From IMG/VR virus record IMGVR_UViG_3300045995_000378: a DNA stretch of 64,000 bases. One strand, given 5' to 3'. Source of the stretch: a virus. Under the pieces are notes generated by a model. That model searched no databases. It saw nothing but the letters and a program-made list of their open reading frames with translations, and had not been told where the DNA came from. The position numbers and the translations under genes are program-made. Every line of letters begins with the position of its first letter. Position 1 is the stretch's first letter. This document shows positions 1 through 46,684 of this stretch, piece after piece.

Positions 1-55
1 GTTACGTGGGTTGTCTGGATAGAAAGTATCCCCCTCCCCCCCACTATATGTAATG

Positions 56-69
56 ATATTATATAGTTA
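56..69 (+). repeat. copy 1 of 14-mer ATATTATATAGTTA in the 600-bp non-coding leader
   Basis: exact 14-mer repeated at 329..342; AT-rich, TATA-like. Confidence 0.5.
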
Positions 70-328
70 CAGGTGGTACGTGGTGGGGGAATAGCTGAAT
101 CCTGTCCTCTGCACATACAATGTGTCAAATACGCGTACTTTGGGGAATAGGTTAATGAATATAGGCAGTTGCGTTTTTCACGTGGTTTACATAAGTCGGA
201 AATCGGCATTATACGAGGGCAATATGAGAAAATGGATTGCCTCTGACCTGTGAGAATGACCGGAAATTTTGACCTGGCAGAAGGGTGCCGAGCTATAACA
301 ATAAGGGGAGAAAAATATATTGTGTACA

Positions 329-342
329 ATATTATATAGTTA
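329..342 (+). repeat. copy 2 of 14-mer ATATTATATAGTTA; possible -10 region or operator upstream of early plus-strand genes
   Basis: exact repeat of 56..69; TTGTGT-N17-TAAATT context. Confidence 0.4.
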
Positions 343-600
343 TAAATTATTATCGATTATCGTGGCGGGTGGCATGGATCATGCTCTAGATATAGCAGAC
401 AAGCAGGCAACTAAACCACTAACAGGAGGGCAGGCAAATGAAATTAAGCGAGATAGCAATCAACCAGTGTAAAACAGGGACCACCTGCCAGGGATGCCCG
501 GCGCATAACACGCCACAGTGTAACACCATAGCAGTATTGGCAATGATAAGACGTACTAATGATAAATGATAGCACTACTTAATAATAGGAGGCAAGTATC

Positions 601-798
601 ATGGATACAATGATCATCATGGCAGAGCGACAGGATAACGGTAAGTACATAATGACAGCCGATAACGGCGAGTTGCCGCAAGAGGGTAATGAGCACAACA
701 GCAAGCAGTCTGTATATAAGGATTGCAAGGCAATGTATGAGGGCGCAACATGGCAAGGGCGCAAAGTACATAGTGGATATCGGATAGTGATAGATTAG
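601..798 (+). CDS. hypothetical early protein (65 aa)
   Basis: ORF with AGGAGG SD 8 nt upstream. Confidence 0.55.
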   Translation: MDTMIIMAERQDNGKYIMTADNGELPQEGNEHNSKQSVYKDCKAMYEGATWQGRKVHSGYRIVID

Positions 799-847
799 CT
801 TAATCCTTTTACCCTGCTCTATCGCAAGGGCATAACTTGAAAGGGGT

Positions 848-1030
848 ATGATTATGAAATGCAATCAATGCGAAGCTGCTATGATTAACGGGATTTTTTG
901 TCATGAGCACGGATGTCCGAACTCAAGAAAAATCTACTCAGAGGAATCAGGACAATGGGAAAGAACCTTTACGTGCTCTTACTGTGGATATGAATATCCA
1001 GAGGATGAAACTTGTTGCGAGAAAGATTAA
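848..1030 (+). CDS. Cys-rich zinc-ribbon protein (60 aa)
   Basis: CxxC...HEHGC...CxxC pattern; GAAAGGGG SD. Confidence 0.55.
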   Translation: MIMKCNQCEAAMINGIFCHEHGCPNSRKIYSEESGQWERTFTCSYCGYEYPEDETCCEKD

Positions 1031-1131
1031 CATACTATCAACAAGATGCAAGCGATTAAATAAGTAGACATACTGGCGGGCATACCGGGAACGAGGGCAT
1101 ACCATCAACTGAACTATAGGAGGGCATACCA

Positions 1132-1329
1132 ATGAGGCAGACAATTAGTAATGATTTCCATAACATGAAAATTACCATTAACAAAACAGACAAGCAGTTA
1201 GACGCTATCTCATACCGGATATATAGTGGCACTGCAAGCAAGGCAGATAAGGCATACCGGCGAAAATTGCATAATGCCTTATGCGGGAGTGATGAGTGTA
1301 CCTGTGGCGATGATTTTGGCAGGCGGTAA
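1132..1329 (+). CDS. hypothetical early protein (65 aa)
   Basis: AGGAGGGCATACCA-ATG context. Confidence 0.5.
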   Translation: MRQTISNDFHNMKITINKTDKQLDAISYRIYSGTASKADKAYRRKLHNALCGSDECTCGDDFGRR

Positions 1330-1382
1330 TAGCGGTAATAGCTAACATACCAACAACTTTAATTAATTGAAAGGAGAACAAT

Positions 1383-1637
1383 ATGAAAAGGAACTATCAG
1401 GAACTAATCACACGAAAACAGCGGGAACATGGGGCAAAGTTTGACACTTCGGATCTTAACCAAGAATTTATTAAGCACTACGAATCAGGGGAAAGGGTAA
1501 CAGTAAACTTTGGATATGAGAAAAAACGGGGGACAATAGGAGTCACTACCGGGTGGAAACCTTGTTTTTTGCTTATGCTGAGGAGTAACTCCAGAGGGTC
1601 CAGTTATACTATCGGGAAAAATGACAAGGTTGTTTAA
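1383..1637 (+). CDS. hypothetical early protein (84 aa)
   Basis: AAAGGAGAACAAT-ATG SD. Confidence 0.55.
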   Translation: MKRNYQELITRKQREHGAKFDTSDLNQEFIKHYESGERVTVNFGYEKKRGTIGVTTGWKPCFLLMLRSNSRGSSYTIGKNDKVV

Positions 1638-1671
1638 TAGCATACCAACAACGATGAAAGGGGTACATACC

Positions 1672-1881
1672 ATGACTAACAATGAAGCAAAAAAGATCAT
1701 AAGCAACAAACTTAATGAACTTAACCTCCCAGCTTTTAAACTTACCGCAAAAACGATTGACTTTACGGACCTGGCGAGAGCAAGCAAGCTGTTCGTCAAA
1801 ATTCACGGTTGGAAACCATCGCCATTATGGGTTGACCTCCAGAAAACAGCAAAGGAAAACGGGTTTTTAATCCAAGATTAA
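1672..1881 (+). CDS. hypothetical early protein (start trimmed to the ATG after GAAAGGGG SD)
   Basis: SD GAAAGGGGTACATACC-ATG; track ORF 1621..1881 is extended upstream. Confidence 0.5.
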   Translation: MTNNEAKKIISNKLNELNLPAFKLTAKTIDFTDLARASKLFVKIHGWKPSPLWVDLQKTAKENGFLIQD

Positions 1882-1912
1882 ACATACCATCAACCATAAA
1901 GGAGTGCATACC

Positions 1913-2233
1913 ATGACAAAGCAAGAAAGAATTGATTCATTACTACCTGAGGGCATACCAAAGTGGATCAGAGCATTTGACAATGGCGGGAAAACTTTTG
2001 ACCGTTATACGGTAATATTTTCACATACTCACAGCTTTGGACTGAGAGGCTATACGGTGGGTGTGGGAATGTCGGAAAATCCCTTTCATCCGCAGGGGTT
2101 CGGTCAACACTTCGAGTATAAACGCCAGGACTATAACGGGCGGAGTGGCGGAAAGAGAATCACGTTTCAGGAATTGCCGGAAAAGTGCCGGGAACTGGTT
2201 TTATCGGATTATAAGGATTATTGGAAATTGTAA
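1913..2233 (+). CDS. hypothetical early protein (106 aa)
   Basis: AAAGGAGTGCATACC-ATG; track ORF starts 9 nt earlier. Confidence 0.55.
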   Translation: MTKQERIDSLLPEGIPKWIRAFDNGGKTFDRYTVIFSHTHSFGLRGYTVGVGMSENPFHPQGFGQHFEYKRQDYNGRSGGKRITFQELPEKCRELVLSDYKDYWKL

Positions 2234-2272
2234 AATATCAACATACCATCAAACTTAACAGGAGGTTACAAA

Positions 2273-2419
2273 ATAGAATTTCTAAAATGTAAGCGGTGTA
2301 CTTATGAATGGTTGCCGAGGCCGAGGTTCAAGGGGGAGAAGCCTAAGCAGTGCCCGAGGTGTAAACAATTGACCTGGGAAACGGGACTATTACCACGGAT
2401 TAAACGGGAAAAGGAATAA
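2273..2419 (+). CDS. candidate zinc-ribbon protein (CKRC...CPRC); no ATG/GTG/TTG start, in frame directly after the TAA of the upstream gene
   Basis: AGGAGG SD 7 nt before an ATA codon; paralogous to the minus-strand zinc ribbon at 14753..14896. Confidence 0.35.
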   Translation: MEFLKCKRCTYEWLPRPRFKGEKPKQCPRCKQLTWETGLLPRIKREKE

Positions 2420-2462
2420 TTAAGCATACCATCAACAGACATACCATAGGAGGAATTGAAAA

Positions 2463-2690
2463 ATGGAAATCATTGGATATTATGATCTTGACGGGTATAG
2501 GATAGAAGACAACCTTGACGGTGAAATATTATATGAGGCCGGGAATAATCCGCTTGAGAGTACAAGCCACGTTGACCATGCAGACGGATTGCCGATTGAA
2601 AAGATTATTGAATACTGCATATTGACAGGGCAGGAAATGGCAGAGGAATTGAAAGCGGAGTTTAAAGGAGCGTATTTGATTGAGGAATAA
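2463..2690 (+). CDS. hypothetical early protein (75 aa, acidic)
   Basis: ATAGGAGGAATTGAAAA-ATG. Confidence 0.55.
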   Translation: MEIIGYYDLDGYRIEDNLDGEILYEAGNNPLESTSHVDHADGLPIEKIIEYCILTGQEMAEELKAEFKGAYLIEE

Positions 2691-2751
2691 ACAAGCATAC
2701 CAGAGGCGGGAATATATCAACATACCATCAACAAATCGAAAGGGGTTTATT

Positions 2752-2940
2752 ATGAAAATCACGGTTACAGTACCACCGACAAATGAGCAGGGAAGTTATA
2801 AAACCATAGTCAAGGGTTCGTATTTGCAGACATACCGGGCAGAGGCTTTGCAAGATTATAATTCAGCACGCGCTCATGATGGACTTGAACCACTGCGGAG
2901 AATGCCAAAGGGGACGACATACCAGAGAGCGGCTTTATAA
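2752..2940 (+). CDS. hypothetical early protein (start trimmed)
   Basis: GAAAGGGGTTTATT-ATG. Confidence 0.5.
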   Translation: MKITVTVPPTNEQGSYKTIVKGSYLQTYRAEALQDYNSARAHDGLEPLRRMPKGTTYQRAAL

Positions 2941-2986
2941 CATACCGGATTTTATAACATACCAGACGACGAAAGGGGAATAAATC

Positions 2987-5227
2987 ATGGTTTACAATAT
3001 CAATTTCGCAACGGGGAAATTAGAGGCTATAGATTGCAGCGATAAGAATAATTTGCCAGTGGGGACGGTACTTCACATGCACGGGTATAATGAGCCGGAG
3101 TATGTGATCGTTGAGAAGGTGGGTATTGATACCAAATACGGGACCGGCGCGAAATATCGGACTTTAAATATTGATGATCTAATCTATAGCCAAAAAGAGG
3201 CAAGCGGCCTTATGTGGCTGAAGGATAAGAAAAGCGATATGATTCAGACCTATATCACGGAAAGGGTATTGACGGTTGAACAGGTCCGGGAACTGGTTAG
3301 CAAGGCGGATGTTAAAAAGTTAGCGTCTGACACATACCGGGCCAATGCTGAGATTGAACGGGCACGGCTGGAAACCATAGGCAGGGAACTGTTCAAGAAG
3401 CACATACCAGAAAGTGCACAGGCTCTAATTGTTGCGGAATGTCATAAGGACGAAAGTAACATGATGGAGGATTACCACGGGCATACCACGAAAGCCACTG
3501 TGATTATCGGGTATAGTATGCACAAAAAAGACCTATTTTCCGAAATGAGAAAGGCAGCGGCTCGCATACCGGAAACGGCACACCTGGGGCCGGGGAAGGG
3601 GCACTTTGAGCCACGGGTAATAATTGGACAGGATTTCCAGAGCAACGGGTCGTTTTATCACAAGGGGTCATATTCGCATTGGCACCAGAAATTGACAGAG
3701 GATGAAAGCCGGGCCGGATATAACAGGGGCTTTGTATTCCCTACAATGGCGGAGGCTCAGGCTTTTATTGATAGCAAGGGGCCTGCATACCCGATATCAT
3801 TTGACGGTGTGAGCATACTCTTTGAATGGGATATAGTGGAAAGTAAGATCGAACATCGGGAGAAGTATTCAATGGGGGCGGGGTATTACCTGAAAGATGG
3901 GCATAGTAATTCCAGCGGGTGGGCTGTGTCAAAGGAAACAAGGTATCGGGACCAGTGGCCGAGCAACTTCTATGTGGCTATGGCTGAAAGGTGCATATTT
4001 GAGACAGCCGCACCCATACCGCCAACACCCACCAAGAAGCAGGATCTAGAGCATACGACCGACACGACCACGACCGCACCGGCGACACATACCGAGGGCG
4101 TAACCGTAACCAAAAATGTTGAGAAGTCCGGGATTGAAATCAGGTTCCCGAATAAACCAGCCGTTACAATTCTTAATAATCTCAAAGCTCACGGGTGGAG
4201 GTGGACTAATTACGGCGGGTGCTGGTATCATAAGGACACGCCGGACAATTGGACTTTTGCGCAGACCTTCACGGGTCAGGATATATCGGAAAGCATACCG
4301 ACCGACACGACAGCGGAACCCATACCGGCCACCATACTGCAACGGACAACCTCAGACATCCCCGCTAAACTCCGCACCTTAGCCGATGAGATGGAAAAGA
4401 CTATTGATGGAAAAATGAACAGTGCAACCAGTCAACAGAATCCGACACGGCGACGATTAGCAATGGCGGAGGGTATGCGTAAAGATGGGGAGAATTTGCA
4501 AAAGGTGCAGTTTTTGCTTAGGGCATTGGCAGATATGCACGAGGCCGGGACCGTGCCGCTTGAACTGGCAAAGGTCACATCAAAGGCCGCCGCCCAGGTT
4601 GCCTTGACTGGTTGGGGCGGGGATAAAATCCAGGCCGCTGTTGACATTGCCAATGGTAAGCCGCCCGAAGATGCAAAGGCTAAGACGCTAAGGGACTTGG
4701 ACCGGGAGCTTATAGGGTGCAAGATACCGGGGTTTTTCATCACGCCGAAAAATGTTGCCGCTCAGGTGATTGAACTGGCAGACATACGGGAAGGCATGGA
4801 GGTCTTGGAACCATCAGCAGGCCGAGGCGATATTGCCGAGCTTGTCAACCACGGTTCACATTTAACCTGCATTGAGTACCAGCAGAAATTGGCGGGCATA
4901 CTGGATCTGAAGGGGTTTAATACGATTTGTGGGGACTTTTTGGAGCATACCGGGAGTTATGACCGCATCTGCCAAAATCCACCCTTCGAGAATTTTCAAG
5001 ACATTTCCCATGTCCGCCATGCCTTTGATTGCCTTAAACCTGGGGGCCGTCTGGTTTCAATCATGGGTGAAAGTGCCTTCTTCCGTCAAGACCGCATACC
5101 GACCGAGTTCAGAGAATGGCTTGACGATAAGGGGGCCGAGGTCATTGATTTACCAGCGGGGAGCTTTCAAGGAACTATCACCAGCACAGGAGTTAAGGCA
5201 CGTATAGTGATTATTGACAAGGATTAG
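2987..5227 (+). CDS. 746-aa multidomain early protein; N-terminal and central regions unknown with Thr/Pro-rich linkers; C-terminal gamma-class N6-adenine DNA methyltransferase domain
   Basis: motif I VLEPSAGRGDI followed ~50 aa later by motif IV NPPFE; SD GAAAGGGGAATAAATC-ATG; 11 internal CATACC copies. Confidence 0.6.
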   Translation: MVYNINFATGKLEAIDCSDKNNLPVGTVLHMHGYNEPEYVIVEKVGIDTKYGTGAKYRTLNIDDLIYSQKEASGLMWLKDKKSDMIQTYITERVLTVEQVRELVSKADVKKLASDTYRANAEIERARLETIGRELFKKHIPESAQALIVAECHKDESNMMEDYHGHTTKATVIIGYSMHKKDLFSEMRKAAARIPETAHLGPGKGHFEPRVIIGQDFQSNGSFYHKGSYSHWHQKLTEDESRAGYNRGFVFPTMAEAQAFIDSKGPAYPISFDGVSILFEWDIVESKIEHREKYSMGAGYYLKDGHSNSSGWAVSKETRYRDQWPSNFYVAMAERCIFETAAPIPPTPTKKQDLEHTTDTTTTAPATHTEGVTVTKNVEKSGIEIRFPNKPAVTILNNLKAHGWRWTNYGGCWYHKDTPDNWTFAQTFTGQDISESIPTDTTAEPIPATILQRTTSDIPAKLRTLADEMEKTIDGKMNSATSQQNPTRRRLAMAEGMRKDGENLQKVQFLLRALADMHEAGTVPLELAKVTSKAAAQVALTGWGGDKIQAAVDIANGKPPEDAKAKTLRDLDRELIGCKIPGFFITPKNVAAQVIELADIREGMEVLEPSAGRGDIAELVNHGSHLTCIEYQQKLAGILDLKGFNTICGDFLEHTGSYDRICQNPPFENFQDISHVRHAFDCLKPGGRLVSIMGESAFFRQDRIPTEFREWLDDKGAEVIDLPAGSFQGTITSTGVKARIVIIDKD

Positions 5228-5277
5228 CATACCGGACATACCGGGAACTTTAACGCATACCATGAAAGGGGCATACC

Positions 5278-5463
5278 ATGATTAAGATAGGCAATGAAAA
5301 ACTGTTCACCATGACGGAGTTACTGGAGAATTTAGTAGAAGATATCAAGACAAGCGAGTTAGATGCTGAGGTGGTAGAGATAGCATTTATCACGGTGGGG
5401 AATATCATCGGAGAATCGGCGGATTTTGTGCGCGGATTCGTAACGAGTAGAAGGGAGGGGTGA
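5278..5463 (+). CDS. hypothetical early protein (61 aa)
   Basis: GAAAGGGGCATACC-ATG. Confidence 0.5.
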   Translation: MIKIGNEKLFTMTELLENLVEDIKTSELDAEVVEIAFITVGNIIGESADFVRGFVTSRREG

Positions 5464-5466
5464 AAA

Positions 5467-5721
5467 ATGGAAAATGTAGGATGCAAAAAAATCATAGGTG
5501 GCTATCCAAAGTATATCGTGTTACATGAGGACGGATGCTGCGGACATAAACACCGGAGCTTAAACAATGCCATGAAATGCTATGACCATTATGACCTGAC
5601 AAGCAATGTCGTGATGGTAACGCTATCGAAAGAATGCAGCAAAGTCGATACGCTGTGGATTGACCATTGCCTGCTGAAACATACCTCGGTGAGGGAGATG
5701 GCGGAAGTATTGGAGGCTTAA
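5467..5721 (+). CDS. Cys/His-rich early protein (84 aa)
   Basis: GGAGGGGGTGAAAA-ATG. Confidence 0.5.
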   Translation: MENVGCKKIIGGYPKYIVLHEDGCCGHKHRSLNNAMKCYDHYDLTSNVVMVTLSKECSKVDTLWIDHCLLKHTSVREMAEVLEA

Positions 5722-5748
5722 TAAACGACATACAAGGAGGTGCATACC

Positions 5749-5958
5749 ATGTTGAATAAGATTAAAGTTTATACTGAGGTTGGCGCAAAGGCGGGACGGG
5801 CAAGAAAGCATCACGACGAAGCGACGGCGCGAAGCCATATTGACTGGTTCAGGCGGGCCGTGAGACTGGAAGCCGATACTGACCTTGCGGAAATAACCGA
5901 GGCTTTTAATGCCGCATACCGGGAGGAGGCCACGCCTTCAGTTAGGGGGATGATATGA
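5749..5958 (+). CDS. hypothetical early protein (69 aa)
   Basis: AAGGAGGTGCATACC-ATG; overlaps the next gene by ATGA. Confidence 0.55.
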   Translation: MLNKIKVYTEVGAKAGRARKHHDEATARSHIDWFRRAVRLEADTDLAEITEAFNAAYREEATPSVRGMI

Positions 5959-6146
5959 GCCGGGCACTGGAAATCAAATATATCGGCGCGGTTGCTTTGC
6001 TCGGCAGGCTATCACCGCAAATCAGGGACGATGACGACCGTTATTGTATAAAGCAGGCGATGGACGACCTGCTGGCTGAGATGCCGGGACGGTTTGAAAT
6101 CTGGAAAGTGTCGGGCGGGTTTTCGCTTGAACCAAAACGGGATTGA
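5955..6146 (+). CDS. hypothetical early protein (63 aa)
   Basis: ATGA overlap with the upstream gene. Confidence 0.5.
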   Translation: MSRALEIKYIGAVALLGRLSPQIRDDDDRYCIKQAMDDLLAEMPGRFEIWKVSGGFSLEPKRD

Positions 6147-6168
6147 CATACCACAGGGGGAAGAGACG

Positions 6169-6429
6169 ATGAATTATGACATAGCTTTCGACAATGAACA
6201 CCTGCGTGAAGACCAGGAAATTGAATGGCACCGAGAAAATGCCGAAACCATACTTCCTCCCTCTCTGATCTCCGCTCTAAAACACTCAAACGAGGTGAGA
6301 CAGGCAAGAATCGATAATCTCATGGACGAGAACATAATATTGACCGCCCTGCTGAGTGACATGTGGGAGCGGCGGTACGGGACAACGGAAGGATTTGATA
6401 GCTGGCTGAAAGGGAGGATTGAAAAATGA
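6169..6429 (+). CDS. hypothetical early protein (86 aa, start trimmed)
   Basis: GGGGGAAGAGACG-ATG. Confidence 0.5.
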   Translation: MNYDIAFDNEHLREDQEIEWHRENAETILPPSLISALKHSNEVRQARIDNLMDENIILTALLSDMWERRYGTTEGFDSWLKGRIEK

Positions 6430-6593
6430 GCAAATTTCATGTTGGAGTAGTCTGCGGAATAATTATTGGTATGCTGATCCAATGGTTTGGATACAGTCTT
6501 GCAGAATTATGGAAGGAGTTGTCGAAAAACAAGAAAGCTAAAAAGAATAGCCTAGCATACCGGCGGGCGCTGAAGGAAAAATATGATTTATAG
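6426..6593 (+). CDS. small membrane protein (55 aa), not in the ORF track
   Basis: ATGA overlap with upstream stop; AGGGAGG SD; one hydrophobic helix then a basic tail. Confidence 0.5.
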   Translation: MSKFHVGVVCGIIIGMLIQWFGYSLAELWKELSKNKKAKKNSLAYRRALKEKYDL

Positions 6594-6626
6594 ACATACT
6601 GCATACCATCAAGAACGGAGATAACT

Positions 6627-6710
6627 ATGGAAGCGTTTGGAATCTGGATAGCGATAATGTCGGTAGCAACTATCTATCTTTTTAGTCGATGGGATGGAAG
6701 TATGTGGTGA
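6627..6710 (+). CDS. 27-aa hydrophobic peptide, not in the ORF track
   Basis: ACGGAGATAACT-ATG; single transmembrane-like segment. Confidence 0.35.
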   Translation: MEAFGIWIAIMSVATIYLFSRWDGSMW

Positions 6711-6791
6711 AAATTTAGACATACCGGAATATCTCGCATACCGGCATACCAGTGGGCTGCGTCACGATAATCGCGGAGAAAGTAGGAAGAA

Positions 6792-7079
6792 ATGGAAAGA
6801 GAACAGGCGATTGCCTTATCAGAAAGTAAGTTTTGGGAGCCAATGTCGTTTCGAGAACGTGCCGTATTCCAGATTAACGAGCATCGTCTATGCATGCCGT
6901 TTGAAGTATTCCATGAAGCGGTGGAAAAGACTCTTGGTAGGCCGGTATTTACTCATGAATTTGGATTGAATTATGAAGGGTTGAAGAATGAAATTAACAA
7001 CGGTGGCCCATCACCAACAATGGAAGAAATAATCAATATGATACCAGAAGATAAAAGAGTGATTGTTGTGGTAGCATAA
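6792..7079 (+). CDS. hypothetical early protein (95 aa), last gene of the plus-strand block
   Basis: protein-like composition; preferred over overlapping ORF 6694..6969. Confidence 0.5.
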   Translation: MEREQAIALSESKFWEPMSFRERAVFQINEHRLCMPFEVFHEAVEKTLGRPVFTHEFGLNYEGLKNEINNGGPSPTMEEIINMIPEDKRVIVVVA

Positions 7080-7093
7080 TCTCGCCCATACCA

Positions 7094-7120
7094 CCCCCGG
7101 ATTGAATGGCGTCTGGGGTA
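7094..7120. terminator. imperfect GC hairpin (CCCCGGA...TCTGGGG) at the convergence point of the two blocks
   Basis: 7-bp stem with one G-U pair, 10-nt loop, no clear U-run. Confidence 0.25.
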
Positions 7121-7138
7121 CATACCAGACATACCACC

Positions 7139-7327
7139 CTAATTAATTCCTATGGCCTCTACACCCTGTTCGATCAGTAACCTGGCCATGGCCGCCTTTT
7201 TGCGTTTGTTCAACTTAGCGATCTGCTCTAACTGGCATACTGTATCATCTGTTAGAACTATAGTCATCACCCTGGATTTGATGGTTGAACGGTCGGTGAA
7301 CTCCGGGCGACCTCGTTTGGTTAACAT
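7139..7327 (-). CDS. ribbon-helix-helix (Arc/CopG-like) DNA-binding protein
   Basis: beta-strand VMTIVL followed by two helices (DDTVCQLEQIAKLNKRKK, AAMARLLIEQGV); GGAGG SD; start trimmed to the ATG at 7325-7327. Confidence 0.5.
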   Translation of the reverse strand: MLTKRGRPEFTDRSTIKSRVMTIVLTDDTVCQLEQIAKLNKRKKAAMARLLIEQGVEAIGIN

Positions 7328-7397
7328 ACCTACCTCCAAAAGTTAATATTGACATACCATCGCATACCACATGCTATAAATATGGCATACCATTGGA

Positions 7398-7429
7398 GGA
7401 TACATATCATAAGATTTAATACCATGTCA
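7398..7429 (-). promoter_or_regulatory. sigma70-like promoter for the RHH gene (TTGACATGGTATTAAATCTTATGATATGT, minus strand)
   Basis: TTGACA -35 box plus conserved TATTAAAT extension shared with three other minus-strand promoters. Confidence 0.45.
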
Positions 7430-7439
7430 AACAATTTTA

Positions 7440-7637
7440 TTATTCATTTTCTAATGCTTCTAGTACCATTTTCCCGTATTCAGATCCGCGCCGGATACGC
7501 TTCACGATATCCAACTTGTCCTTGTAGCATCCGATAATGTCTACCTGATCCTTGTTGATGATAGCCTTGAATGCGATGAACGTCATGCCATTGTGGGAGA
7601 GGATGTGGGTGTTGCCGTATGTCCAAAGCCTTTCCAT
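7440..7637 (-). CDS. hypothetical protein (65 aa)
   Basis: ORF, weak SD. Confidence 0.4.
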   Translation of the reverse strand: MERLWTYGNTHILSHNGMTFIAFKAIINKDQVDIIGCYKDKLDIVKRIRRGSEYGKMVLEALENE

Positions 7638-7743
7638 CTTATTATCTCTTATCTGGTCGCTACATTTACGCTGCGTGCCTTGGCCCGACCTCCCTCCGTT
7701 CCGGGGTCGTGCCGTTCACGCGCTACATTCGCTTGTCTATCAG

Positions 7744-8022
7744 CTACTCATCCCATTCAATAGTAACTTTGGCATCTTCGGGGATATGTCTAACGCTGGG
7801 AAGTTGAAGACCCTTTAATGTTGTTTCGAGTACCTTATGTTCCTTGACAATTTCCCAATCATCGGCAAGGAACCATTCATCATACATATGTCCAACAGTA
7901 TCCGAGAAACTAAATTCATTGGTAAATATTCCTTTAATTTTAATACATTTTTTATCATCGCTACTATTTCTCTTAATTGCCTGCCCGTCCTTTGCCAATT
8001 TCCATGCTTCGATGATGTTCAT
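7744..8022 (-). CDS. hypothetical protein (92 aa)
   Basis: AAAGGAGACTAT-ATG. Confidence 0.5.
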   Translation of the reverse strand: MNIIEAWKLAKDGQAIKRNSSDDKKCIKIKGIFTNEFSFSDTVGHMYDEWFLADDWEIVKEHKVLETTLKGLQLPSVRHIPEDAKVTIEWDE

Positions 8023-8048
8023 GATAGTCTCCTTTTTTGGTTTAGTGG

Positions 8049-8612
8049 CTACTTTTTCACCAACAGCGGCATCACTATAGCAGTGCGGGTTTTAGTGGCA
8101 ATAATCACCGGCTGGTTCTCGCCGTAAATCCGCACGTTCATCAGCTCATTGGAGATAGCGTCTTGGAGTAGCTTGATGTTTACGGGATGATGTTTAAGAA
8201 TCTCAGTGTAGAAGTAAGTAGGATTGGTAATAGCGATTTCATGCTCAGGGGTGTTACCCTCCATGGTTATGACTGGCCTGTTCCAATTGGGAAACAATCT
8301 ATCATCAGAACCATCCGGCTTGGCGATAAGTATTACCTTGGACTGGTTGATAGCGTACACATCATATTCACCACAAGATATACTCGGATAGGGGTTGGTG
8401 ATTAAATGCAGCCTGTGGCCGTCCGTAGCGACTATTTTGGCAGGTTCGACCAGTATGCCGGTTATGGCAGGCCGGGTGATGTCGCGGGATCGAGCCTTGA
8501 ATAGCCATTGGAGGTCGAGAAAGGCGGTGTCGAAACGGGATTTCTTGGTGATTATGTAGAATAGTGCGCCGGGGGTTACAACTTCTTTTGCTGATTCATT
8601 TTCCATTTTCAT
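8049..8612 (-). CDS. DNA polymerase III beta (sliding clamp)-like single-domain protein
   Basis: motif VATDGHRLHLI matches the conserved ATDGHRL of DnaN; only ~187 aa, about one clamp domain. Confidence 0.4.
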   Translation of the reverse strand: MKMENESAKEVVTPGALFYIITKKSRFDTAFLDLQWLFKARSRDITRPAITGILVEPAKIVATDGHRLHLITNPYPSISCGEYDVYAINQSKVILIAKPDGSDDRLFPNWNRPVITMEGNTPEHEIAITNPTYFYTEILKHHPVNIKLLQDAISNELMNVRIYGENQPVIIATKTRTAIVMPLLVKK

Positions 8613-9028
8613 CTCCGCTCTTTGCCAAGGGTAAATATCCCTTCTCGGTCAAAAAGAACTAAATCCATCTTAGATAATTTATCGTGGTCATATATATTGC
8701 CAATCACCTCAAGGTTGCAATCGTGGTCATCAAGGGGGATAGATTGGCTACCAGAATCTAGCCAGAAAGAAGTATATTGAAAAGTTATTACGCCTATCCG
8801 CTCGTTCCATTCACAACCAAATCCAGGCAATTGATTAAGAATATCCCCTTCGTAAATATCAATTCCATTTTTATCCTTCAACCCTGTAAATTCCATGAGT
8901 TCAAAATGAGTGTCAAAAATACCAACACTTTCCCAAAAACCAGTATCGCCGCTTGACGCAGACCAATCTAACATTTTTTTATTGTTTTTATCCCATGCGC
9001 GAAATTTAATTTCTCTTTGCTTAGCCAT
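8609..9028 (-). CDS. YopX family protein
   Basis: N-terminal KFRAWDK..KM motif and overall YopX-like layout. Confidence 0.6.
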   Translation of the reverse strand: MAKQREIKFRAWDKNNKKMLDWSASSGDTGFWESVGIFDTHFELMEFTGLKDKNGIDIYEGDILNQLPGFGCEWNERIGVITFQYTSFWLDSGSQSIPLDDHDCNLEVIGNIYDHDKLSKMDLVLFDREGIFTLGKERR

Positions 9029-12314: not shown

Positions 12315-13061
12315 TTAACTAAAATCAAATACCGATTGCGATAATCGCTTGACGGCTATCTCGCAGTATTTCTCTTCGATCTCAATACCGATTGCTTTTC
12401 GTCCTAATTGCTTAGCAGCGAAAAGTGTAGTCCCAACACCCATAAATGGGTCAAGAACAACATCCTTATCTTTGGTAAAATAACCTATGAAATAATTACA
12501 CATTGCAATTGGAAAAGTTGCATGGTGCTCTTTGAATGATTCTTTTTTATACCATGTCTTGATATTAGGAACATAACCATTAGAAGGGAAATTGGAATAT
12601 GAGAATACTTTACTTTTATTTTCACCAAGTAAAAAGACAAATTCAAAGCCATTTGCCATTATGGGCGACCCTTGCATGGCGATTTGTTGTGCTACTGCTT
12701 GCTTCTGCCAGATAAAAATATCCTTTATGTTTCCATCAAAGTAGGAAAATATTTTATGTATCACATCTTTGGTGCTCACAATATATTGCATATTCCAAAA
12801 CACATATCGTGATTTCAATAAACATGATTCTATCGCGGCAATAATCATATCCATGTATTGAATTTGGTTAATATTATCTTTATATTCATTGTAATAATTA
12901 TTACCTATTTTAGTTTTGGGATGATATCCTAAATTTTTCTTGCTACTAATGTTATAAGGCGGTGAGGTAAGTACCAAATCCACTGGGGCAAGTTCCGGCA
13001 ATATCTCCCTGCAATCACCATGATAAATTGTAATATTGTCAGATTCGTAATACGGCTTCAT
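12315..13061 (-). CDS. DNA methyltransferase (N4-cytosine/N6-adenine family, pfam01555-like)
   Basis: TSPPYN catalytic motif and C-terminal DPFMGVGTT SAM-binding motif. Confidence 0.8.
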   Translation of the reverse strand: MKPYYESDNITIYHGDCREILPELAPVDLVLTSPPYNISSKKNLGYHPKTKIGNNYYNEYKDNINQIQYMDMIIAAIESCLLKSRYVFWNMQYIVSTKDVIHKIFSYFDGNIKDIFIWQKQAVAQQIAMQGSPIMANGFEFVFLLGENKSKVFSYSNFPSNGYVPNIKTWYKKESFKEHHATFPIAMCNYFIGYFTKDKDVVLDPFMGVGTTLFAAKQLGRKAIGIEIEEKYCEIAVKRLSQSVFDFS

Positions 13062-20258: not shown

Positions 20259-20335
20259 TGGCGAAGGGCTAAGGAATCGAACCTTACACAGTCAAATTTG
20301 GAGTCTGACTCGCCAGCCTTGGAACATGGCCCCCC
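20259..20335 (-). tRNA. tRNA-Trp(CCA)-like gene with encoded 3' CCA
   Basis: reverse complement reads GGGGGGC...T-arm TAAGG-TTCGATT-CCTTA...GCCCTTC-G-CCA; anticodon loop CTCCAAA (U33, CCA, A37); G18G19 in D-loop; weak D-stem and two G-U pairs in the acceptor. Confidence 0.5.
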
Positions 20336-20346
20336 TTGATTATTGC

Positions 20347-21759
20347 TTACCAATCCGGTTCGGTTACGATTGACGGTGCGGGTTTACTGGTTGACTTGGT
20401 TGCGGGCTTAGGTGCTGGTTTGATTTCCTTTTCTACTACTACGCCCTCTATCGCCGCGATTTCACCCTCTTCGATATAGAACCCTACGCCCGGCACATTA
20501 CCATCTTTGTCTCGCTCGGCAACACCCTCAAAGAACATTTGGAACTTCTTATCCTTAATCATTTCTTTGATAATCGCACGGTTCTTGGAGTCTATCAAGC
20601 TACCCCTCCGTGTCCAAATAACTCTTAATTCCGGCTTCTGCGCCATTGCAATTCCCAATCCAACCCGCAACCTATCTCCATCGGATACTTGGTCAAGAGG
20701 GATATCATTGTAGAATAATTCCCCTTCAGAATACGAAAACCCAGGGATAGGCCACTCAGCATTTTTGAGGATGGCAGCACGTTCATTGGCTATGGATTCT
20801 ATATTGGCGGTGAATGTATCGTAAGTTGATTTAGCATCATCAAACTCAGCCTGTGCTTTCTTACGACTAACATTGGCGCGAATTTTAGAATTAGTAATTT
20901 CAATAGACTGGATTTCAGCGTTGATAGCAGAAATATCAATAGGCTCAAGTTCAGCGATTGCTTCTCTTTCTGCCACAAACTCTTTCTTTTGGTTGGCAAG
21001 TAGAATCTCAAGATGTCCCATCTCTGTTTGCAGATTAGCTATTTTTTCCTTGATATCTTCAATCTTCCCCCTGGTCGCAACACCTGCATTCTTCAACTTC
21101 TCATTTGCCGATTCGCGGTTTTTGATATCCTGGTTCCAATTCATAGCCTTGGTCAACTTCTGGGATAATTCACTAATTTTGACTTCTTCTGTCCCCTTGA
21201 TGGCAGGATAGTATTCAATAGCCTTGTAAACTGCCTCCGCCTTTTTCATGTCTCGGCCTACCGATTCCCGTTGCTGCCTCAAGTCCTTTTCTTTCTTATC
21301 TAATTCATCAAGATTGATACCGAGCACATTGAATAGGATTTTCTTCAATTCGTTCTTGTCTGTTTTCTCAATCAAGTCAAGCGGGTCAAATGATATACGC
21401 GACCGGATTTTATCAAGAAATGACTGCGGTGATTCGTTAATAGCATTCCCGGAAGCATCTTCGATTTTCAGGATGCCTTTGAGATTCTTCTTGGTAAAGG
21501 TTTTTGATATCCAGTATTCAATCCGGTCATCACCTTCACCAATTGCCATTCGCATCTTTCCTTTTTCTTCTCCAATTCGGATAGGCATTCCGGGGACTTC
21601 AGATGCACCACCAGTTAGAGCAGGGATACAATCAATAAGGCTACTTTTGCCGGCTCCGTTAGGGCCGGTGATTTCATTGAGGTCTTTAGTTGGCGTGATG
21701 TCTATTGCGATTAGTTTCTTGAAGTTCTCGGCTTGTAAAGTTATAATTCTCATGTTCAT
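20347..21759 (-). CDS. SMC/SbcC/RecF-like ABC-type ATPase with central coiled coil
   Basis: Walker A GPNGAGKSS; long coiled-coil middle; C-terminal signature/D-loop region (DGDRLRVGLGIAMAQ). Confidence 0.6.
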   Translation of the reverse strand: MNMRIITLQAENFKKLIAIDITPTKDLNEITGPNGAGKSSLIDCIPALTGGASEVPGMPIRIGEEKGKMRMAIGEGDDRIEYWISKTFTKKNLKGILKIEDASGNAINESPQSFLDKIRSRISFDPLDLIEKTDKNELKKILFNVLGINLDELDKKEKDLRQQRESVGRDMKKAEAVYKAIEYYPAIKGTEEVKISELSQKLTKAMNWNQDIKNRESANEKLKNAGVATRGKIEDIKEKIANLQTEMGHLEILLANQKKEFVAEREAIAELEPIDISAINAEIQSIEITNSKIRANVSRKKAQAEFDDAKSTYDTFTANIESIANERAAILKNAEWPIPGFSYSEGELFYNDIPLDQVSDGDRLRVGLGIAMAQKPELRVIWTRRGSLIDSKNRAIIKEMIKDKKFQMFFEGVAERDKDGNVPGVGFYIEEGEIAAIEGVVVEKEIKPAPKPATKSTSKPAPSIVTEPDW

Positions 21760-41462: not shown

Positions 41463-42959
41463 CTACCTCTTCATCTCAGGTTCTTTAAGCATCTCTTCTT
41501 CGATCCGCGCCTGGGCAGTACCTTTGATTGCCAAAAAAGCTGGCCTCATGAATGGTTGCTTCTTTGAATGAGAAGTTCCGAACTCAACAAAAGAATTTGA
41601 CACAACAATACCGCTTGCAATGAAAGAATGAACATCTTTTATAGAAAGATCATATAGGCTTATGTCGCTTTCGCTGGCATCAACAATCTCTTTTTTCACA
41701 ATCTTTCTGGCCTCAAAATAGGTCATATCAACAAAACTATTCATTGAATTATTGCATTGCATATAACGCACACCAGGAATCGGGGACGGATTAATGGATT
41801 TACTGAATCGCCTGTCTGTAAAATGAATATGAACGATATCCCACCCCGGAAGAAGGTTAATGATTTCTTTATCCCTCTCAATATCTATTGCCTGATTTGA
41901 ATGCCAGAATGCACCATCGGCCTCAATAAGCATTTTCTTTTCTGGAATAGCGAAGTCTGCAAAATGATTGCCGACCTTAAATTGACGTTCATATTGCAAG
42001 CCAGTTAATCCAATCCATTCCTCAACCTGCTTTTCGGAACTCGTTTGGAACCCACGTTGAGACATGATTCTGTTGGGATGTGTTTCAGGTCTTGCTACCA
42101 TCCTTGCTGTCGTTACTTCATGCATTAGCTGCCTTGTTGAATCCGTTCTTTTTGAGCCAATATGGGGATTATTTCCTTTCACCCAATATTCATCCCTGCA
42201 TTGCACGGAGCAATATTTCTTCCCTTGGCTATCTTGCCGAGTAAACTCTTTTTGGCAATTAACACAAACTCTTTTCTTCCCTTTCCCCTTATCAGGCGAA
42301 ATCTTTTTAGGACAAAATACATAATCGCCTTCTTGTAATTCACCAGCTTTTACCCAAAATGAAACACCGTCTTTTATGGTTAATATTTTATGGTCATCAG
42401 TTACAGTTAAAGTGTGTTTTCTATCTGATCGCCACTCCACAGTTAGTCGAACAAGGTTCGGTTTTTGCTTCGCAGGAAATGAACTTTTCAAGAGAACTTC
42501 GTGTGGCATCCCGTCTTGTCCAATTACAAGATCACCTTCTTTTATTGAACTTATTGCCTTGAATCCACAGGATGTCTTGATTGTTGTCCCTGGCCCATAA
42601 ATACAAGCGTAAAATCGCGTCGCCGATCCTGCATAAACTCGAATATTCCCTGGCCGGTCGTTCTTCTCAACCTTACGAATAGTATCTCGTAGACTTCCAG
42701 CAGTACGGCCCATCTCTGTTTTTGCGATAAAGTTGACATGCTTCCCACGACCTCTACCAGTTTTGGGAGTGAACATAACATCTCGCATTACGGTCCCATA
42801 GCCTCGATAAGTAGTGCCAATTGCTACATCTTTTTTAGTGGGGCATCGCCTATAAGCATCGGCGGCGACATCGGCCATAACCTTATTCGCACCAATGATA
42901 GCAAGGTCGGCTATGTTCTGGAAGACTTCTTTAATTTTCAGGCCAACTACCCGTGCCAT
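41463..42959 (-). CDS. HK97 gp10-like tail/neck protein interrupted by an intein
   Basis: exteins join to ...TIKTS/SFVEFGTSHSKKQPFMRPAF (gp10-family vEfGT..PflrPAf motif). Confidence 0.6.
   Translation of the reverse strand: MARVVGLKIKEVFQNIADLAIIGANKVMADVAADAYRRCPTKKDVAIGTTYRGYGTVMRDVMFTPKTGRGRGKHVNFIAKTEMGRTAGSLRDTIRKVEKNDRPGNIRVYAGSATRFYACIYGPGTTIKTSCGFKAISSIKEGDLVIGQDGMPHEVLLKSSFPAKQKPNLVRLTVEWRSDRKHTLTVTDDHKILTIKDGVSFWVKAGELQEGDYVFCPKKISPDKGKGKKRVCVNCQKEFTRQDSQGKKYCSVQCRDEYWVKGNNPHIGSKRTDSTRQLMHEVTTARMVARPETHPNRIMSQRGFQTSSEKQVEEWIGLTGLQYERQFKVGNHFADFAIPEKKMLIEADGAFWHSNQAIDIERDKEIINLLPGWDIVHIHFTDRRFSKSINPSPIPGVRYMQCNNSMNSFVDMTYFEARKIVKKEIVDASESDISLYDLSIKDVHSFIASGIVVSNSFVEFGTSHSKKQPFMRPAFLAIKGTAQARIEEEMLKEPEMKR
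41595..42569 (-). mobile_element. intein (~325 aa) with embedded endonuclease domain
   Basis: Cys1 (CGFKAISS), block B TVTDDHKILT (TxxH), blocks F/G LYDLSIKDVHSFIASGIVVSN followed by Ser; internal zinc finger and GNHFADF...IEADGAFWH endonuclease-like motif. Confidence 0.7.
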
Positions 42960-45889: not shown

Positions 45890-46684
45890 TTACTCGTTAA
45901 TTGCCTGTAATAAGGGCATGTGACATTCAATTCGTTTTCTGATTATGTCGCAATAGGTGGCATCCTTTTCAATCAGGATGTATTTTCTATTCGTGTTTAG
46001 ACAGGCCACACCGGTTGTGCCGCTACCCGCGAAAGGGTCAAGAACCGTGTCGCCTGCGTTGCTCCATGAAAGAATGTGGTCGGTGGCGAGTCGTTCAGGG
46101 AACATGGCCGGATGCTGATAAGCCTCCTTGCACGTCGTTCCTTTTCCGTATCCGGTGCTATATGCCCATATATTTTTACGCTTCCCGAAAGCCGCTATCA
46201 CCACGGGATTCCTTTTCGATGTGCTCCCGTCCGCGTTTCTGACCGTTTTGCTTGATACTGTTTTCCCTCCTTGAGAGTTTGCCCGGTCACTTATCATATA
46301 TGCCGTTTTTGGTTTTCCTTTACTCAACACAAACATATATTCAAAACACGACCAATATCGGTTATGATTAGGCTTCTGGAAAGAATCTTTTTCAAAAATC
46401 ATCGTATCGTGAAGGTTAAAACCAAACTCCTTGAAGTAAAGTGCCTGTTTGAATGATGTCCCCGTTTCGCTCCCGTTGATTGTGGCATCGCCTACTACCC
46501 AGACCACCACACCGCCGTCTTTCGTAACCCTGTAAAGTTCTTTAGCTATCCCCTCAAAATCAAAGGTAGAATTGCCGTTATAGGTTCGCAGATTGTCATA
46601 GGGCGGAGATGTCACCGTCAGGTCAATGGACTTATCGGGCAAAGTCGGCATTATGGTTAAGCAATCACCTTCGTACAGCATCAC
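45890..46684 (-). CDS. DNA methyltransferase (N4/N6 family, pfam01555-like)
   Basis: VTSPPYD and DPFAGSGTT motifs. Confidence 0.8.
   Translation of the reverse strand: MMLYEGDCLTIMPTLPDKSIDLTVTSPPYDNLRTYNGNSTFDFEGIAKELYRVTKDGGVVVWVVGDATINGSETGTSFKQALYFKEFGFNLHDTMIFEKDSFQKPNHNRYWSCFEYMFVLSKGKPKTAYMISDRANSQGGKTVSSKTVRNADGSTSKRNPVVIAAFGKRKNIWAYSTGYGKGTTCKEAYQHPAMFPERLATDHILSWSNAGDTVLDPFAGSGTTGVACLNTNRKYILIEKDATYCDIIRKRIECHMPLLQAINE

Follow-up and report, generated by a model that had tools for sequence, protein, structure and literature searches.

Several described systems rely on short, often oriented sequence motifs, and the locus reported here, an array of the hexamer CATACC in the early operon of a phage known from the IMG/VR record IMGVR_UViG_3300045995_000378, resembles each of them in part. 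The stretch analysed, hereafter the window, comprises the first 64,000 bases of the 71,223-bp genome. The closest described phenomenon is that of the stoperators of cluster A mycobacteriophages, bound by repressors of the L5 gp71 type, which are many short asymmetric sites located in short intergenic spaces, with an orientation linked to transcription and a function that depends on that orientation (PMC9283540). Stoperators are 13-mers, occur more than twenty times per genome in both early and late operons of temperate phages, and are recognized by a monomeric repressor with a two-domain helix-turn-helix (HTH) structure. The PeSLs of T4-like phages and the SAS of cluster K mycobacteriophages are co-oriented short elements that bound small mosaic early genes near their translation starts, the former being promoter-plus-hairpin units of about 50 bp and the latter 13-mers that include the Shine-Dalgarno (SD) sequence and are found only upstream of starts. 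Operators of the Arc/Mnt, omega and NikR type consist of 2-10 subsites at fixed spacing by a promoter, and the ribbon-helix-helix (RHH) fold that binds them reads asymmetric subsites of 6-7 bp. Chi sites and tandem Chi arrays, read by RecBCD or AddAB, are short asymmetric one-strand motifs that act on a one-way machine with a cumulative effect of copy number; they are defined by the host and spread over the host genome. Finally, the KOPS of FtsK, the SRS of SpoIIIE and the eukaryotic U1-PAS code rely on a motif enriched in one orientation and avoided in the other in connection with a directional machine, the first two being skewed genome-wide about the replication terminus and the third belonging to eukaryotic RNA processing; to our knowledge no such code has been described in phages, nor as an array restricted to one region.

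The CATACC array joins a one-strand accumulation in the early operon to the loss of that orientation across the remaining genome, a combination not found in any described system. The pattern is genuine and statistically extreme, it is conserved, and strong selection on it continues. Stoperators, PeSLs and Arc-type operators each part from it in at least one defining feature. Oriented arrays of short motifs in phage genomes are a kind already known; if the reader acts on transcription or RNA, the system may be categorically new, and the orientation-specific depletion elsewhere in the genome is a new result.

The CATACC array of the early operon

From position 438 to 7079 all genes of the window lie on the plus strand; they are small genes without assigned function and one gene for a 746-aa protein. 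The plus strand of the whole window holds 53 CATACC and the minus strand 12, and 51 of the 53 form an array at positions 1081-7391, with a median gap of 76 nt and a largest gap of 625 nt. For the block 1040-7420, the zero-order expectation is 1.07 copies, first- and second-order Markov models with the motif masked give 0.92, and 1000 dinucleotide shuffles gave 1.59 ± 1.23, with a maximum of 6, while the reverse complement occurs there twice. CATACC was by far the top enriched word at each length from 5 to 8. An earlier note on this DNA had counted by hand about 50 plus-strand copies in about 6.4 kb, where about 1.5 were expected, and the computed counts agree with it; the absence of enrichment, or an equal frequency on both strands and over the whole genome, which the same note had named as the outcome that would speak against its claim, is contradicted by 51 plus-strand against 2 minus-strand copies in the block.

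The hexamer proposed in the earlier note is enriched, yet the true core is longer. A purine stands at -1 in 47 of the 51 window copies and at +7 in 48, no further position is conserved in the position matrix, and CATACT is the sole enriched one-mismatch variant, so that the signal is R-CATAC(C/T)-R. When the window was pooled with five relatives (183 sites from six phages), a purine was found at -1 in 167 sites (91%) and at +7 in 86%. Two extended forms had also been proposed. One of them, CATACCGG, was counted 15 times, in line with the estimate of about 15; the other had been placed before the SD sequences, where its exact 12-mer, CATACCATCAAC, proved rare, the ATCAAC continuation being present in 5 of the 183 pooled sites, and where a looser form, CATACCAYYAAC, is present about 8-15 nt upstream of the SD. 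Start-to-start distances among the pooled sites are irregular, beginning at 7 nt and extending to 34 nt and more; no value is preferred, helical phasing is absent, and most sites are isolated. Two other readings of the motif were discarded: wobble-tolerant RNA-RNA pairing, since wobble-compatible variants other than C6-to-T are not enriched, and an integron attC-like or IHF-like reading of the ATCAAC extension, which does not fit those consensus sequences. Rfam 15 gave no match at the gathering score on either strand across the window, and no mention of the motif in a phage context was found in the literature library searched.

Within the block the copies are concentrated outside genes. After gene coordinates were checked against an independent gene call, 32 copies were assigned to about 950 nt of non-coding DNA (34 per kb) and 19 to 5.4 kb of coding DNA (3.5 per kb). 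A typical short intergenic region holds hardly anything besides one copy after the stop codon, the SD, and often a second copy that fills the spacer between SD and ATG; the 8-bp element lies about 30 nt upstream of many start codons. The densest intergenic cluster, with four copies in 50 nt (5228-5277, plus strand), is situated between the stop codon of the 746-aa gene (5225-5227) and a 61-aa gene conserved in the relatives L122, L137, L139 and L140, and its final copy occupies the SD-ATG spacer. The 746-aa gene itself (2987-5227, plus strand) has 11 copies that do not depend on the reading frame. Over all coding copies, frames 0, 1 and 2 are used 4, 8 and 7 times and encode HT, xYR/xYQ/xYP and xIP, respectively, which upholds the earlier statement that the motif is read in at least three frames. 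The array does not begin with the operon: a leader of three small plus-strand genes (43, 65 and 58 aa, the last a zinc ribbon; 438-1030), located between the physical left end and the array, has no plus-strand CATACC, and two CATACT starting at about 1032 and 1069 form a bridge to the array. A motif-poor leader is also seen in relatives, its length being about 2.9 kb for L122, about 1.4 kb for L137 and 1.1 kb in the window.

A separate observation concerns a small zinc-ribbon gene of the block (2273-2420, plus strand), conserved in L122 and L137, that has ATA at the same SD distance where its relatives have ATG; it has either an ATA start codon or been recently inactivated.

The position of a stand-alone 8-bp element about 30 nt before many start codons could suggest that a phage-modified RNA polymerase uses it as a minimal promoter or initiator, much like the 8-bp late promoter of T4, so that each gene cassette would have its own start signal; removal of the antisense orientation would be expected of promoters, and the motif-free leader genes could encode a specificity factor. 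However, there is no second conserved element beside the motif and no fixed downstream start context, many copies stand in SD-ATG spacers or in genes, where a transcript would start without a ribosome-binding site, and three flanked copies at the right border of the array would direct transcription antisense to the next leftward gene. The domain scans revealed neither a sigma-like nor a polymerase gene. Moreover, near-consensus sigma-70 promoters (TTGACA, 17-18 nt, TATATT) are present at the left end of L122 and L137, and L137 has the order first gene, canonical terminator, second promoter, array, so that ordinary promoters stand both at the left end and at the start of its array. At the far left of the window operon no consensus host-type promoter was found, and promoter-like matches in positions 1-9000 were not above those in shuffles (25 against 19.2 ± 4.5). 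A promoter function is thus considered very unlikely. The early promoter or PeSL-like recombination module of the earlier note is disfavoured on the same grounds: the array shares with PeSLs and SAS its co-oriented elements at the borders of small mosaic genes, near translation starts, but it has no -35/-10 pair and no stem-loop accompanying the motif at gene boundaries, a third of its copies are coding, and one orientation is depleted across the genome.

Depletion of the same orientation outside the array

The genes that follow the array, beyond a small repressor gene, all run leftward and include a helicase, a Sak4-like protein, an SbcC-like ATPase, several methyltransferases, a tape-measure-like protein of 1821 aa and tail genes. 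In this region (7441-64000) the plus strand has two CATACC, at 17922 and 18357, neither flanked by purines on both sides, where a second-order Markov model predicts 19.9, while the minus strand has 9, at the chance value of 10.6; an additional minus-strand copy is found at 845. The earlier note had given about one plus-strand and about eight minus-strand copies for the remainder, which is close, and had described both as near or below expectation, a description that holds for the minus orientation and missed how far below expectation the plus orientation falls. Read on the late coding strand the depleted word is GGTATG, which ranks fifth among the most depleted of all 4096 hexamers and is the sole non-palindrome of those five, the next word, GGACCA, containing an AvaII-type GGWCC. 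Its neighbours in the ranking are restriction-type palindromes or include one, as TGATCA, GGATCC, TTCGAA and TGGACC illustrate. The deficit persists when codon usage is taken into account, as shuffling of synonymous codons in 91 late genes put the expectation at 10.6 ± 2.9, where 2 are observed (p about 0.002), and GGT, although the commonest glycine codon, is absent from all 21 Gly-Met pairs.

The same asymmetry was observed beyond the window. In the 7 kb past its end the plus orientation was found 0 times against 3.0 expected and the opposite orientation once against 1.3. The late module of L149 has 0 against 4.7 and 2 against 3.5, respectively, and that of L150 has 0 against 4.3 and 2 against 2.7, so that the two modules together lack the plus orientation where 9.0 copies are expected. 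In the other loci pooled, which are mainly replication modules adjoining arrays and include the 7 kb past the window, the figures are 16 against 27.8 and 15 against 13.2. L130, a more distant genome that lacks an array, shows no depletion, with 6 copies in 13.8 kb. The rule is that plus-strand RCATACCR is confined to the array. Since the opposite orientation is neutral, a reader that recognizes merely the duplex site is excluded. Nor is GGUAUG harmful in any mRNA, as GGTATG is tolerated in the coding strand of the early genes themselves (10 against 7.6 expected, pooled).

Three other causes of the GGTATG loss were considered and set aside. Avoidance of internal start sites does not account for it, GGA-ATG and GGG-ATG being used 9 times each. 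A bulky strand-specific modification, by which the polymerase would be stopped on the template strand, predicts avoidance of GGTATG in the early genes, where the count is the one given above. Avoidance of Type III or Type ISP restriction is contradicted by the presence of both orientations, which leaves cleavable pairs. Independently of the motif, restriction-type palindromes are avoided in 7441-64000: TGATCA is found 4 times against 27.8 expected, GGATCC 0 against 16.9, TTCGAA 1 against 19.7, AGATCT 1 against 16.5 and CTTAAG 0 against 13.0, and GGACC-containing words 0 against about 15. The genome has at least three further methyltransferase-like genes, at 12315-13061, 45890-46684 and 56409-57530.

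Conservation and continuing selection

Relatives were found through homologues of the 746-aa protein and of a 187-aa protein encoded at 8049-8612 (minus strand), on metagenomic contigs from several sites. Plus-strand CATACC arrays with the same conserved neighbours occur in L122, L139, L137, L140, L144, L148 and L145, of which L122 and L139 are near-duplicate assemblies of one phage and L144 and L148 overlap. These relatives carry 14 to 61 copies, with 0-5 on the other strand; in L122, 61 of 65 CATACC are sense to the early operon. A weaker array (12 copies in 4.2 kb) is present in L132, whose homologue is 58% identical and whose G+C content is 55%. By contrast with these, neither an array nor any other enriched word was found in L130, which has the same architecture and a 37% identical homologue, and no array was found in L123, L124, L126, L127 and L128, where methyltransferase homologues stand in unrelated contexts. 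Other searches returned no relatives: deposited phages gave no nucleotide match to the window, single-protein scans of IMG/VR gave none, a three-copy motif pattern in IMG/VR retrieved chance or coding-repeat matches only, mostly antisense of Gly-Met repeats, and protein-profile and DNA-pattern scans of a genome collection gave a single DNA-pattern match, attributable to chance.

The array is preserved while the genes around it change. In and beside the block, the window and L122 have in common two zinc-ribbon genes, the 746-aa, 61-aa, 65-aa and 187-aa genes and the repressor gene, and the remaining small genes of the block all differ. The homologous 746-aa genes carry 11 copies in the window and 18 in L122, compared to 0-1 in array-less genomes; about seven positions are common to both phages and the others are specific to one lineage. 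Some sites arose synonymously, HTT being coded with the motif in only one of the two phages, some through amino-acid replacement, with RIP where the relatives have KVV, RKA or RKH, and further ones lie in repeated xIP and HT units of a variable linker. Synonymous choices and amino-acid replacements together indicate selection on the nucleotide sequence that is still continuing. With the use of three frames, they corroborate the earlier view of a strand-specific signal at the nucleic-acid level and not at the protein level.

The C-terminal part of the 746-aa protein resembles the N6-adenine methyltransferase domain of large polyvalent proteins of phages and plasmids, and non-palindromic 6-bp sites that contain an adenine are typical of such enzymes. 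The earlier note had listed among its candidates that CATACC is the target of the block's own asymmetric-site methyltransferase; a host BREX or Type III-like enzyme could also be considered, with the array serving as a methylation-timed switch or as a decoy. Against this, L140 keeps its array although its 746-aa homologue ends before the methyltransferase domain, whereas L123, L126 and L130 have homologues of 37-53% identity and no array. A duplex site is, in addition, the same in both orientations and cannot explain the removal of only one, and the mixture of orientations leaves the genome cleavable by a Type III-like enzyme. The proposal is therefore disfavoured and appears the least likely of those weighed here.

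Two of the array-less contigs have repeats of their own. L126 (JGI 3300072490), a high-G+C, unrelated phage-like contig with a 41% identical methyltransferase homologue, carries TGACGATA 13 times and words of the TTGATTCTGACGAT type 7-12 times on one strand and none on the other, possibly a phage-specific promoter. In L124, positions 20450-20660 contain tandem 15-bp repeats (GCGGACCTCCAGnnC) within a gene that probably encodes a pentapeptide-type repeat protein.

Boundaries of the array and the Arc-like repressor

The array ends around a small leftward gene, convergent with the early operon, at 7139-7327 (minus strand). Its 62-aa product matches the PHROG family phrog_3431, annotated as Arc-like repressor (E=1e-7), and Pfam RHH_5 with E=0.007, a score that misses the family cut-off; every relative whose contig reaches that far has a homologue, at 68-77% identity. 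On its left, a three-copy cluster (7087-7135, plus strand) lies just past its stop codon and adjoins an imperfect hairpin, CCCCGGA...TCTGGGG, without a T-run; no intrinsic terminator was predicted inside the window operon, nor on either strand at 7000-7500. On its right, at the boundary of the array (7328-7440), three flanked plus-strand copies at 7353, 7363 and 7386 are located between the pairable stretches CCTCCAA (7333-7339) and TTGGAGG (7393-7399). The start codon of the gene stands inside a motif copy (GGTATG on the minus strand), and its leader also carries GGUAUG. Upstream is a leftward sigma-70-like promoter, TTGACA at 7430-7425 and TATGTA at 7406-7401. Read by eye in seven phages, the TTGACA is complete in five, cut at its 5' side by the extracted segment in L122 and L144, and TTGATA in L145.

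In six phages the flanked plus-strand copies pass the last rightward gene, lie on both sides of the repressor gene and end no more than about 70 nt before its start codon, just downstream of its leftward promoter; copies further right lack the purine flanks and look like chance occurrences or by-products of coding. The region where the array ends, just downstream of the leftward sigma-70-like promoter, forms stable hairpins in every phage. L140 has a different layout: its repressor gene is 3.8 kb away, under its own promoter and with no flanked copy near, and its array ends at a hairpin that closes the rightward operon. The layout of L140, including its truncated 746-aa homologue, and the boundary in the six other phages indicate that the array follows the rightward transcription unit and is tied to neither the repressor gene nor the methyltransferase.

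The leader of the repressor gene (window 7328-7440 and the homologous regions of six relatives) folds with -24 to -45 kcal/mol; a CCUCC-like stretch can pair with the SD of the gene, the motif cluster lying in the loop, and GGUAUGCC is self-complementary through G-U pairs on the minus-strand RNA. A conserved stem that sequesters the SD was considered and rejected: it is present in single-sequence minimum free energy folds, the long stem is missing from the alignment-based consensus, and in the window the predicted leftward transcript start would exclude the upstream arm.

As with stoperators, orientation follows transcription: 51 of the window's 53 copies are sense to the early operon, as are 61 of the 65 in L122, and five further relatives behave likewise. 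Blocking that depends on the orientation of an asymmetric repressor site has its precedent in stoperators (PMC9283540). Unlike stoperators, the sites here measure 6-8 nt, number about 50 within 6.4 kb of one operon and are found in genes as well, and in late genes the sense orientation is neutral and the antisense one removed, so that the leftward 56.5 kb contain no excess of sense copies (9 against 10.6). Neither an HTH immunity repressor nor an integrase was detected in Pfam and PHROG scans of the larger open reading frames and of the small ones in and adjacent to the early block, scans that left out many small frames of the replication and late modules; the only nearby DNA-binding protein is the Arc-like one.

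A serious rival to the reading favoured below is therefore that the array consists of operators of this Arc-like protein, which would act in the manner of stoperators: one dimer per duplex RCATACCR would form direction-dependent roadblocks to RNA polymerase, which would shut off the early operon or halt leftward transcription entering it. The candidate was already present in the earlier note, as binding sites for the adjacent RHH protein, and several observations speak for it. The gene is conserved in every array-bearing relative that reaches that far, in 6 of 7 phages it borders the array on the right, with motif clusters on both sides and just downstream of its own promoter, and its family match is to an Arc-like repressor. 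The fold is suitable, as RHH dimers of the omega repressor occupy consecutive heptads, with which the minimum spacing of 7 bp is compatible, and the NikR half-site, TCATAC, demonstrates that the fold can read a CATAC core. If the protein accumulated late and blocked polymerase arriving from the CC end, it would explain the removal of the plus orientation from the leftward genes and the neutrality of the minus orientation in late and early genes alike. On the other hand, Arc-type proteins normally need paired subsites at fixed spacing, whereas here about 50 copies in a single orientation are scattered irregularly over 6 kb, mostly isolated and with no preferred distance. Polarity poses a further difficulty: that of natural stoperators predicts avoidance of sense sites in late genes, which stand at chance, and under the opposite polarity only the sites at the junction should matter, while sites 2-6 kb inside the operon are kept despite their cost in amino acids. 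The polarity needed to explain the depletion in the leftward genes leaves the copies of the early operon unable to block early transcription, and in L140 the gene has no flanked site in its vicinity. Although it is backed by the family match, the binding-site candidate is weakened by the site spacing and by L140, and it is regarded as possible but unlikely.

The motif copies in the repressor leader and start codon, and the lack of a predicted terminator after the repressor gene, are also compatible with a minus-strand RNA sponge, in which leftward transcription continuing beyond the repressor gene would yield RNA with about 50 GGUAUG, able to titrate a factor that binds this word, such as a host RNase or an RNA-binding defence protein. 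A single factor would then cover both the array and the removal of GGUAUG from late mRNAs. We know of no sponge factor of this kind that binds GGUAUG, and the word is mostly base-paired in the predicted minus-strand RNA (0.30 unpaired) and not avoided by early mRNAs. Furthermore, in L140 neither the repressor gene nor any obvious leftward unit lies upstream of the array, which a hairpin separates from the leftward genes. A sponge thus appears highly unlikely.

The probable physical end of the genome

The 7.2 kb of the genome past the window encode a capsid protein, a ClpP-type protease, a portal, TerL, a probable TerS and an HNH endonuclease. With large terminases of cultured phages TerL shares about 55% identity; its similarity spans many host phyla, and it is presumably of the HK97-like, HNH-associated type, judging from gene order and general knowledge. 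The window and the independently assembled contig of L137 both start with GTTAC at a homologous position, and L122 extends 31 nt further. As two contigs start alike and the third continues by so little, position 1 is most likely a physical cos end of a linear, cos-type genome. If the analogy with lambda and HK97 holds, packaging would finish, and injection begin, at the end that lies away from the terminase genes, and the array, which begins 1.1 kb and stops 7.4 kb from that end, corresponds to 1.5-10.4% of the genome.

The end region contains other elements. The window, L137 (reversed; positions 1-70) and L122 (positions 32-100) share CCCCC...AATATYRYATAGTTA about 30-70 nt from the end, and the 14-mer ATATTATATAGTTA occurs at window positions 56-69 and again at 329-342; with the GTTAC start these are possible cos, terminase-binding or regulatory elements. 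The non-coding left end of L122 (157-350) has about eight (C)TTGACC, TTGACG and CTTGATTGC repeats upstream of a consensus early promoter at 628-656, which could be iteron-like or terminase-binding.

This geometry gives room to readings in which the motif is seen by a machine that travels over the whole genome. One of them makes it a polar DNA signal for a leftward-moving machine, either a brake or pre-termination zone for the terminase before cos or a one-way barrier to a replication fork. The linear genome of 71,223 bp, the shared GTTAC start and the location of HNH, TerS and TerL at the opposite end agree with it, as packaging would, by the same analogy, run toward position 1 and reach the array last, and lambda cosQ, a short polar signal to which a translocating terminase responds, offers the one known parallel. 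Such a signal would explain the single orientation, the saturation, the short footprint without fixed spacing, the continuation across the repressor gene and the removal from the remaining 64 kb. However, a genome-wide polarity is inseparable from the local polarity of transcription, the late genes all being on one strand, the direction of packaging is itself deduced, the preference for SD-ATG spacers receives no explanation beyond free space, and there is no reason why the L140 array should end exactly with the rightward operon, the correspondence between array and transcription unit being left unexplained. No packaging motor or replisome is known to us that answers to a dispersed motif of 6-8 bp, and this reading is judged rather improbable.

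The other is a Chi-like shield, in which 5'-YGGTATGY-3' on the minus strand would be read by host RecBCD or AddAB entering at the left end, which would lie exposed during injection and following the first cut at cos, with weak sites adding up until attenuation of the nuclease is almost certain, and which would also limit the acquisition of CRISPR spacers from that end. Chi sites are short, asymmetric and rich in G and T, and the orientation is appropriate, since the minus strand has its 3' end at position 1 and an enzyme entering there meets GGTATG from the 3' side, a geometry in which the Chi-like decoy array of the earlier note was correct. An effect that depends on the total number of sites agrees with copies in genes and in all frames, and the motif is identical although the early genes are almost wholly different, as if a host enzyme defined it. 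Yet Chi is neither confined to 9% of a phage genome nor counter-selected elsewhere, and the stretch nearest to the end, over 1.1 kb in the window, 1.4 kb in L137 and 2.9 kb in L122, has no copies, which leaves the first genes unprotected. Once Chi has been recognized later sites are irrelevant, and the removal of the same orientation from the late region therefore goes unexplained. A shield of this type is considered improbable.

A proposed sense mark of the rightward early operon

Six features call for explanation: (a) the single orientation, sense to the early operon; (b) the saturation, which extends to sites that cost amino acids; (c) the footprint of 7-8 nt without fixed spacing; (d) an extent equal to that of the rightward transcription unit; (e) the selection against copies of the same orientation in leftward genes, the other orientation being neutral; and (f) the motif-free leader. 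The reading that we favour, tentatively and as a minority probability, is that RCATACCR is a positive sense mark of the rightward early operon, read on the nascent RNA or on the non-template strand. Recognition would take place during or just after rightward transcription, as CAUACC RNA or as exposed non-template strand, by a sequence-specific factor with a footprint of about 7-8 nt, and each copy would locally favour the plus-strand transcript, for instance through an RNA polymerase that withstands termination, through protection of the RNA or through help to translation initiation. With copies that act locally, selection would fill intergenic spacers, SD-ATG spacers and tolerant codons across an operon of 6-9 kb. 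Antisense to the leftward replication and structural genes, the mark would stabilize or extend harmful antisense RNA and would be selected against, while the opposite orientation would be harmless. Such a mark would account for the first five features, and for the sixth only if the leader genes form a separate immediate-early class, as the layout of L137 hints.

Several observations argue for it. The motif is densest in untranslated RNA (34 against 3.5 per kb), the leftward genes have lost just the orientation that rightward RNA would contain, and irregular spacing from 7 nt upward without phasing suits independent recognition of single strands better than cooperative binding to duplex DNA. 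The sigma-70 promoters of relatives and the absence of a predicted terminator inside or at the end of the window operon point the same way. In the predicted plus-strand RNA the motif is unpaired at 0.59, compared to 0.49 overall and 0.55 for hexamers of the same composition, and GGUAUG in the minus-strand RNA at 0.30. The RNA-binding protein acting on early mRNA that the earlier note had listed among its candidates fits the sense-mark reading, although such a protein was not found. A Rho-loading (rut) site was considered and rejected, as it would make copies in antisense RNA beneficial, the opposite of the observed depletion.

Other points weigh against the sense mark. No RNA- or polymerase-binding reader was recognized, the two zinc ribbons and the 61-aa and 65-aa proteins having no significant family match, and the first rightward genes of what appears to be the same operon lack the motif, where a general mark of early mRNA predicts otherwise. 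The accessibility gap is small and due mostly to base composition. Rightward transcription of the late region is assumed, it is unclear why one copy should be harmful late when so many are needed early, and polar processes at the DNA level explain the same statistics equally well.

Held more loosely than the mark itself, as an unlikely though possible extension, is the idea that the motif constitutes a short sequence code for transcriptional direction, in which a mark about every 100 nt licenses the elongation or survival of rightward early transcripts and its absence, which selection maintains over the other 64 kb, condemns antisense ones. If true, it would be a counterpart in prokaryotic viruses of the eukaryotic U1-PAS directionality axis and a distributed alternative to single-site antitermination of the lambda N/nut type, with a new sequence-specific reader. 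Whichever reader is considered, selection on a signal of 6-8 nt has saturated the non-coding DNA of an operon, rewritten codons and amino acids and cleared the other 90% of the genome. That it has done so across phages with almost wholly different early genes implies a direction-sensitive, sequence-specific reader with a central part in the first minutes of infection. Any of the candidates would have a novel form, be it a distributed antitermination or RNA-protection mark, a dense Arc-like polar roadblock, a packaging brake or a Chi shield of the first-injected end. The signature, an extreme one-strand k-mer array coupled to depletion of the same orientation elsewhere, can be used to search for similar systems, and a compact 8-nt element could bias gene expression or DNA handling by direction.

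Other features of the genome

The 187-aa protein used to find relatives (8049-8612, minus strand) defines the group, with about 40 homologues at 58-78% identity; its PHROG matches are weak, to a RusA-like resolvase (5e-7 over 45 residues) and to a DNA polymerase processivity factor (0.002). A tRNA-Trp with the anticodon CCA lies at 20259-20335 (minus strand), among the genes of the replication module. A 498-aa protein encoded at 41463-42959 (minus strand) combines matches to intein/Hint splicing domains with an endonuclease domain of the Vsr/DUF559 type, and its ends resemble tail-completion/Neck1 proteins; it is probably an intein with a homing endonuclease inserted in a structural gene.

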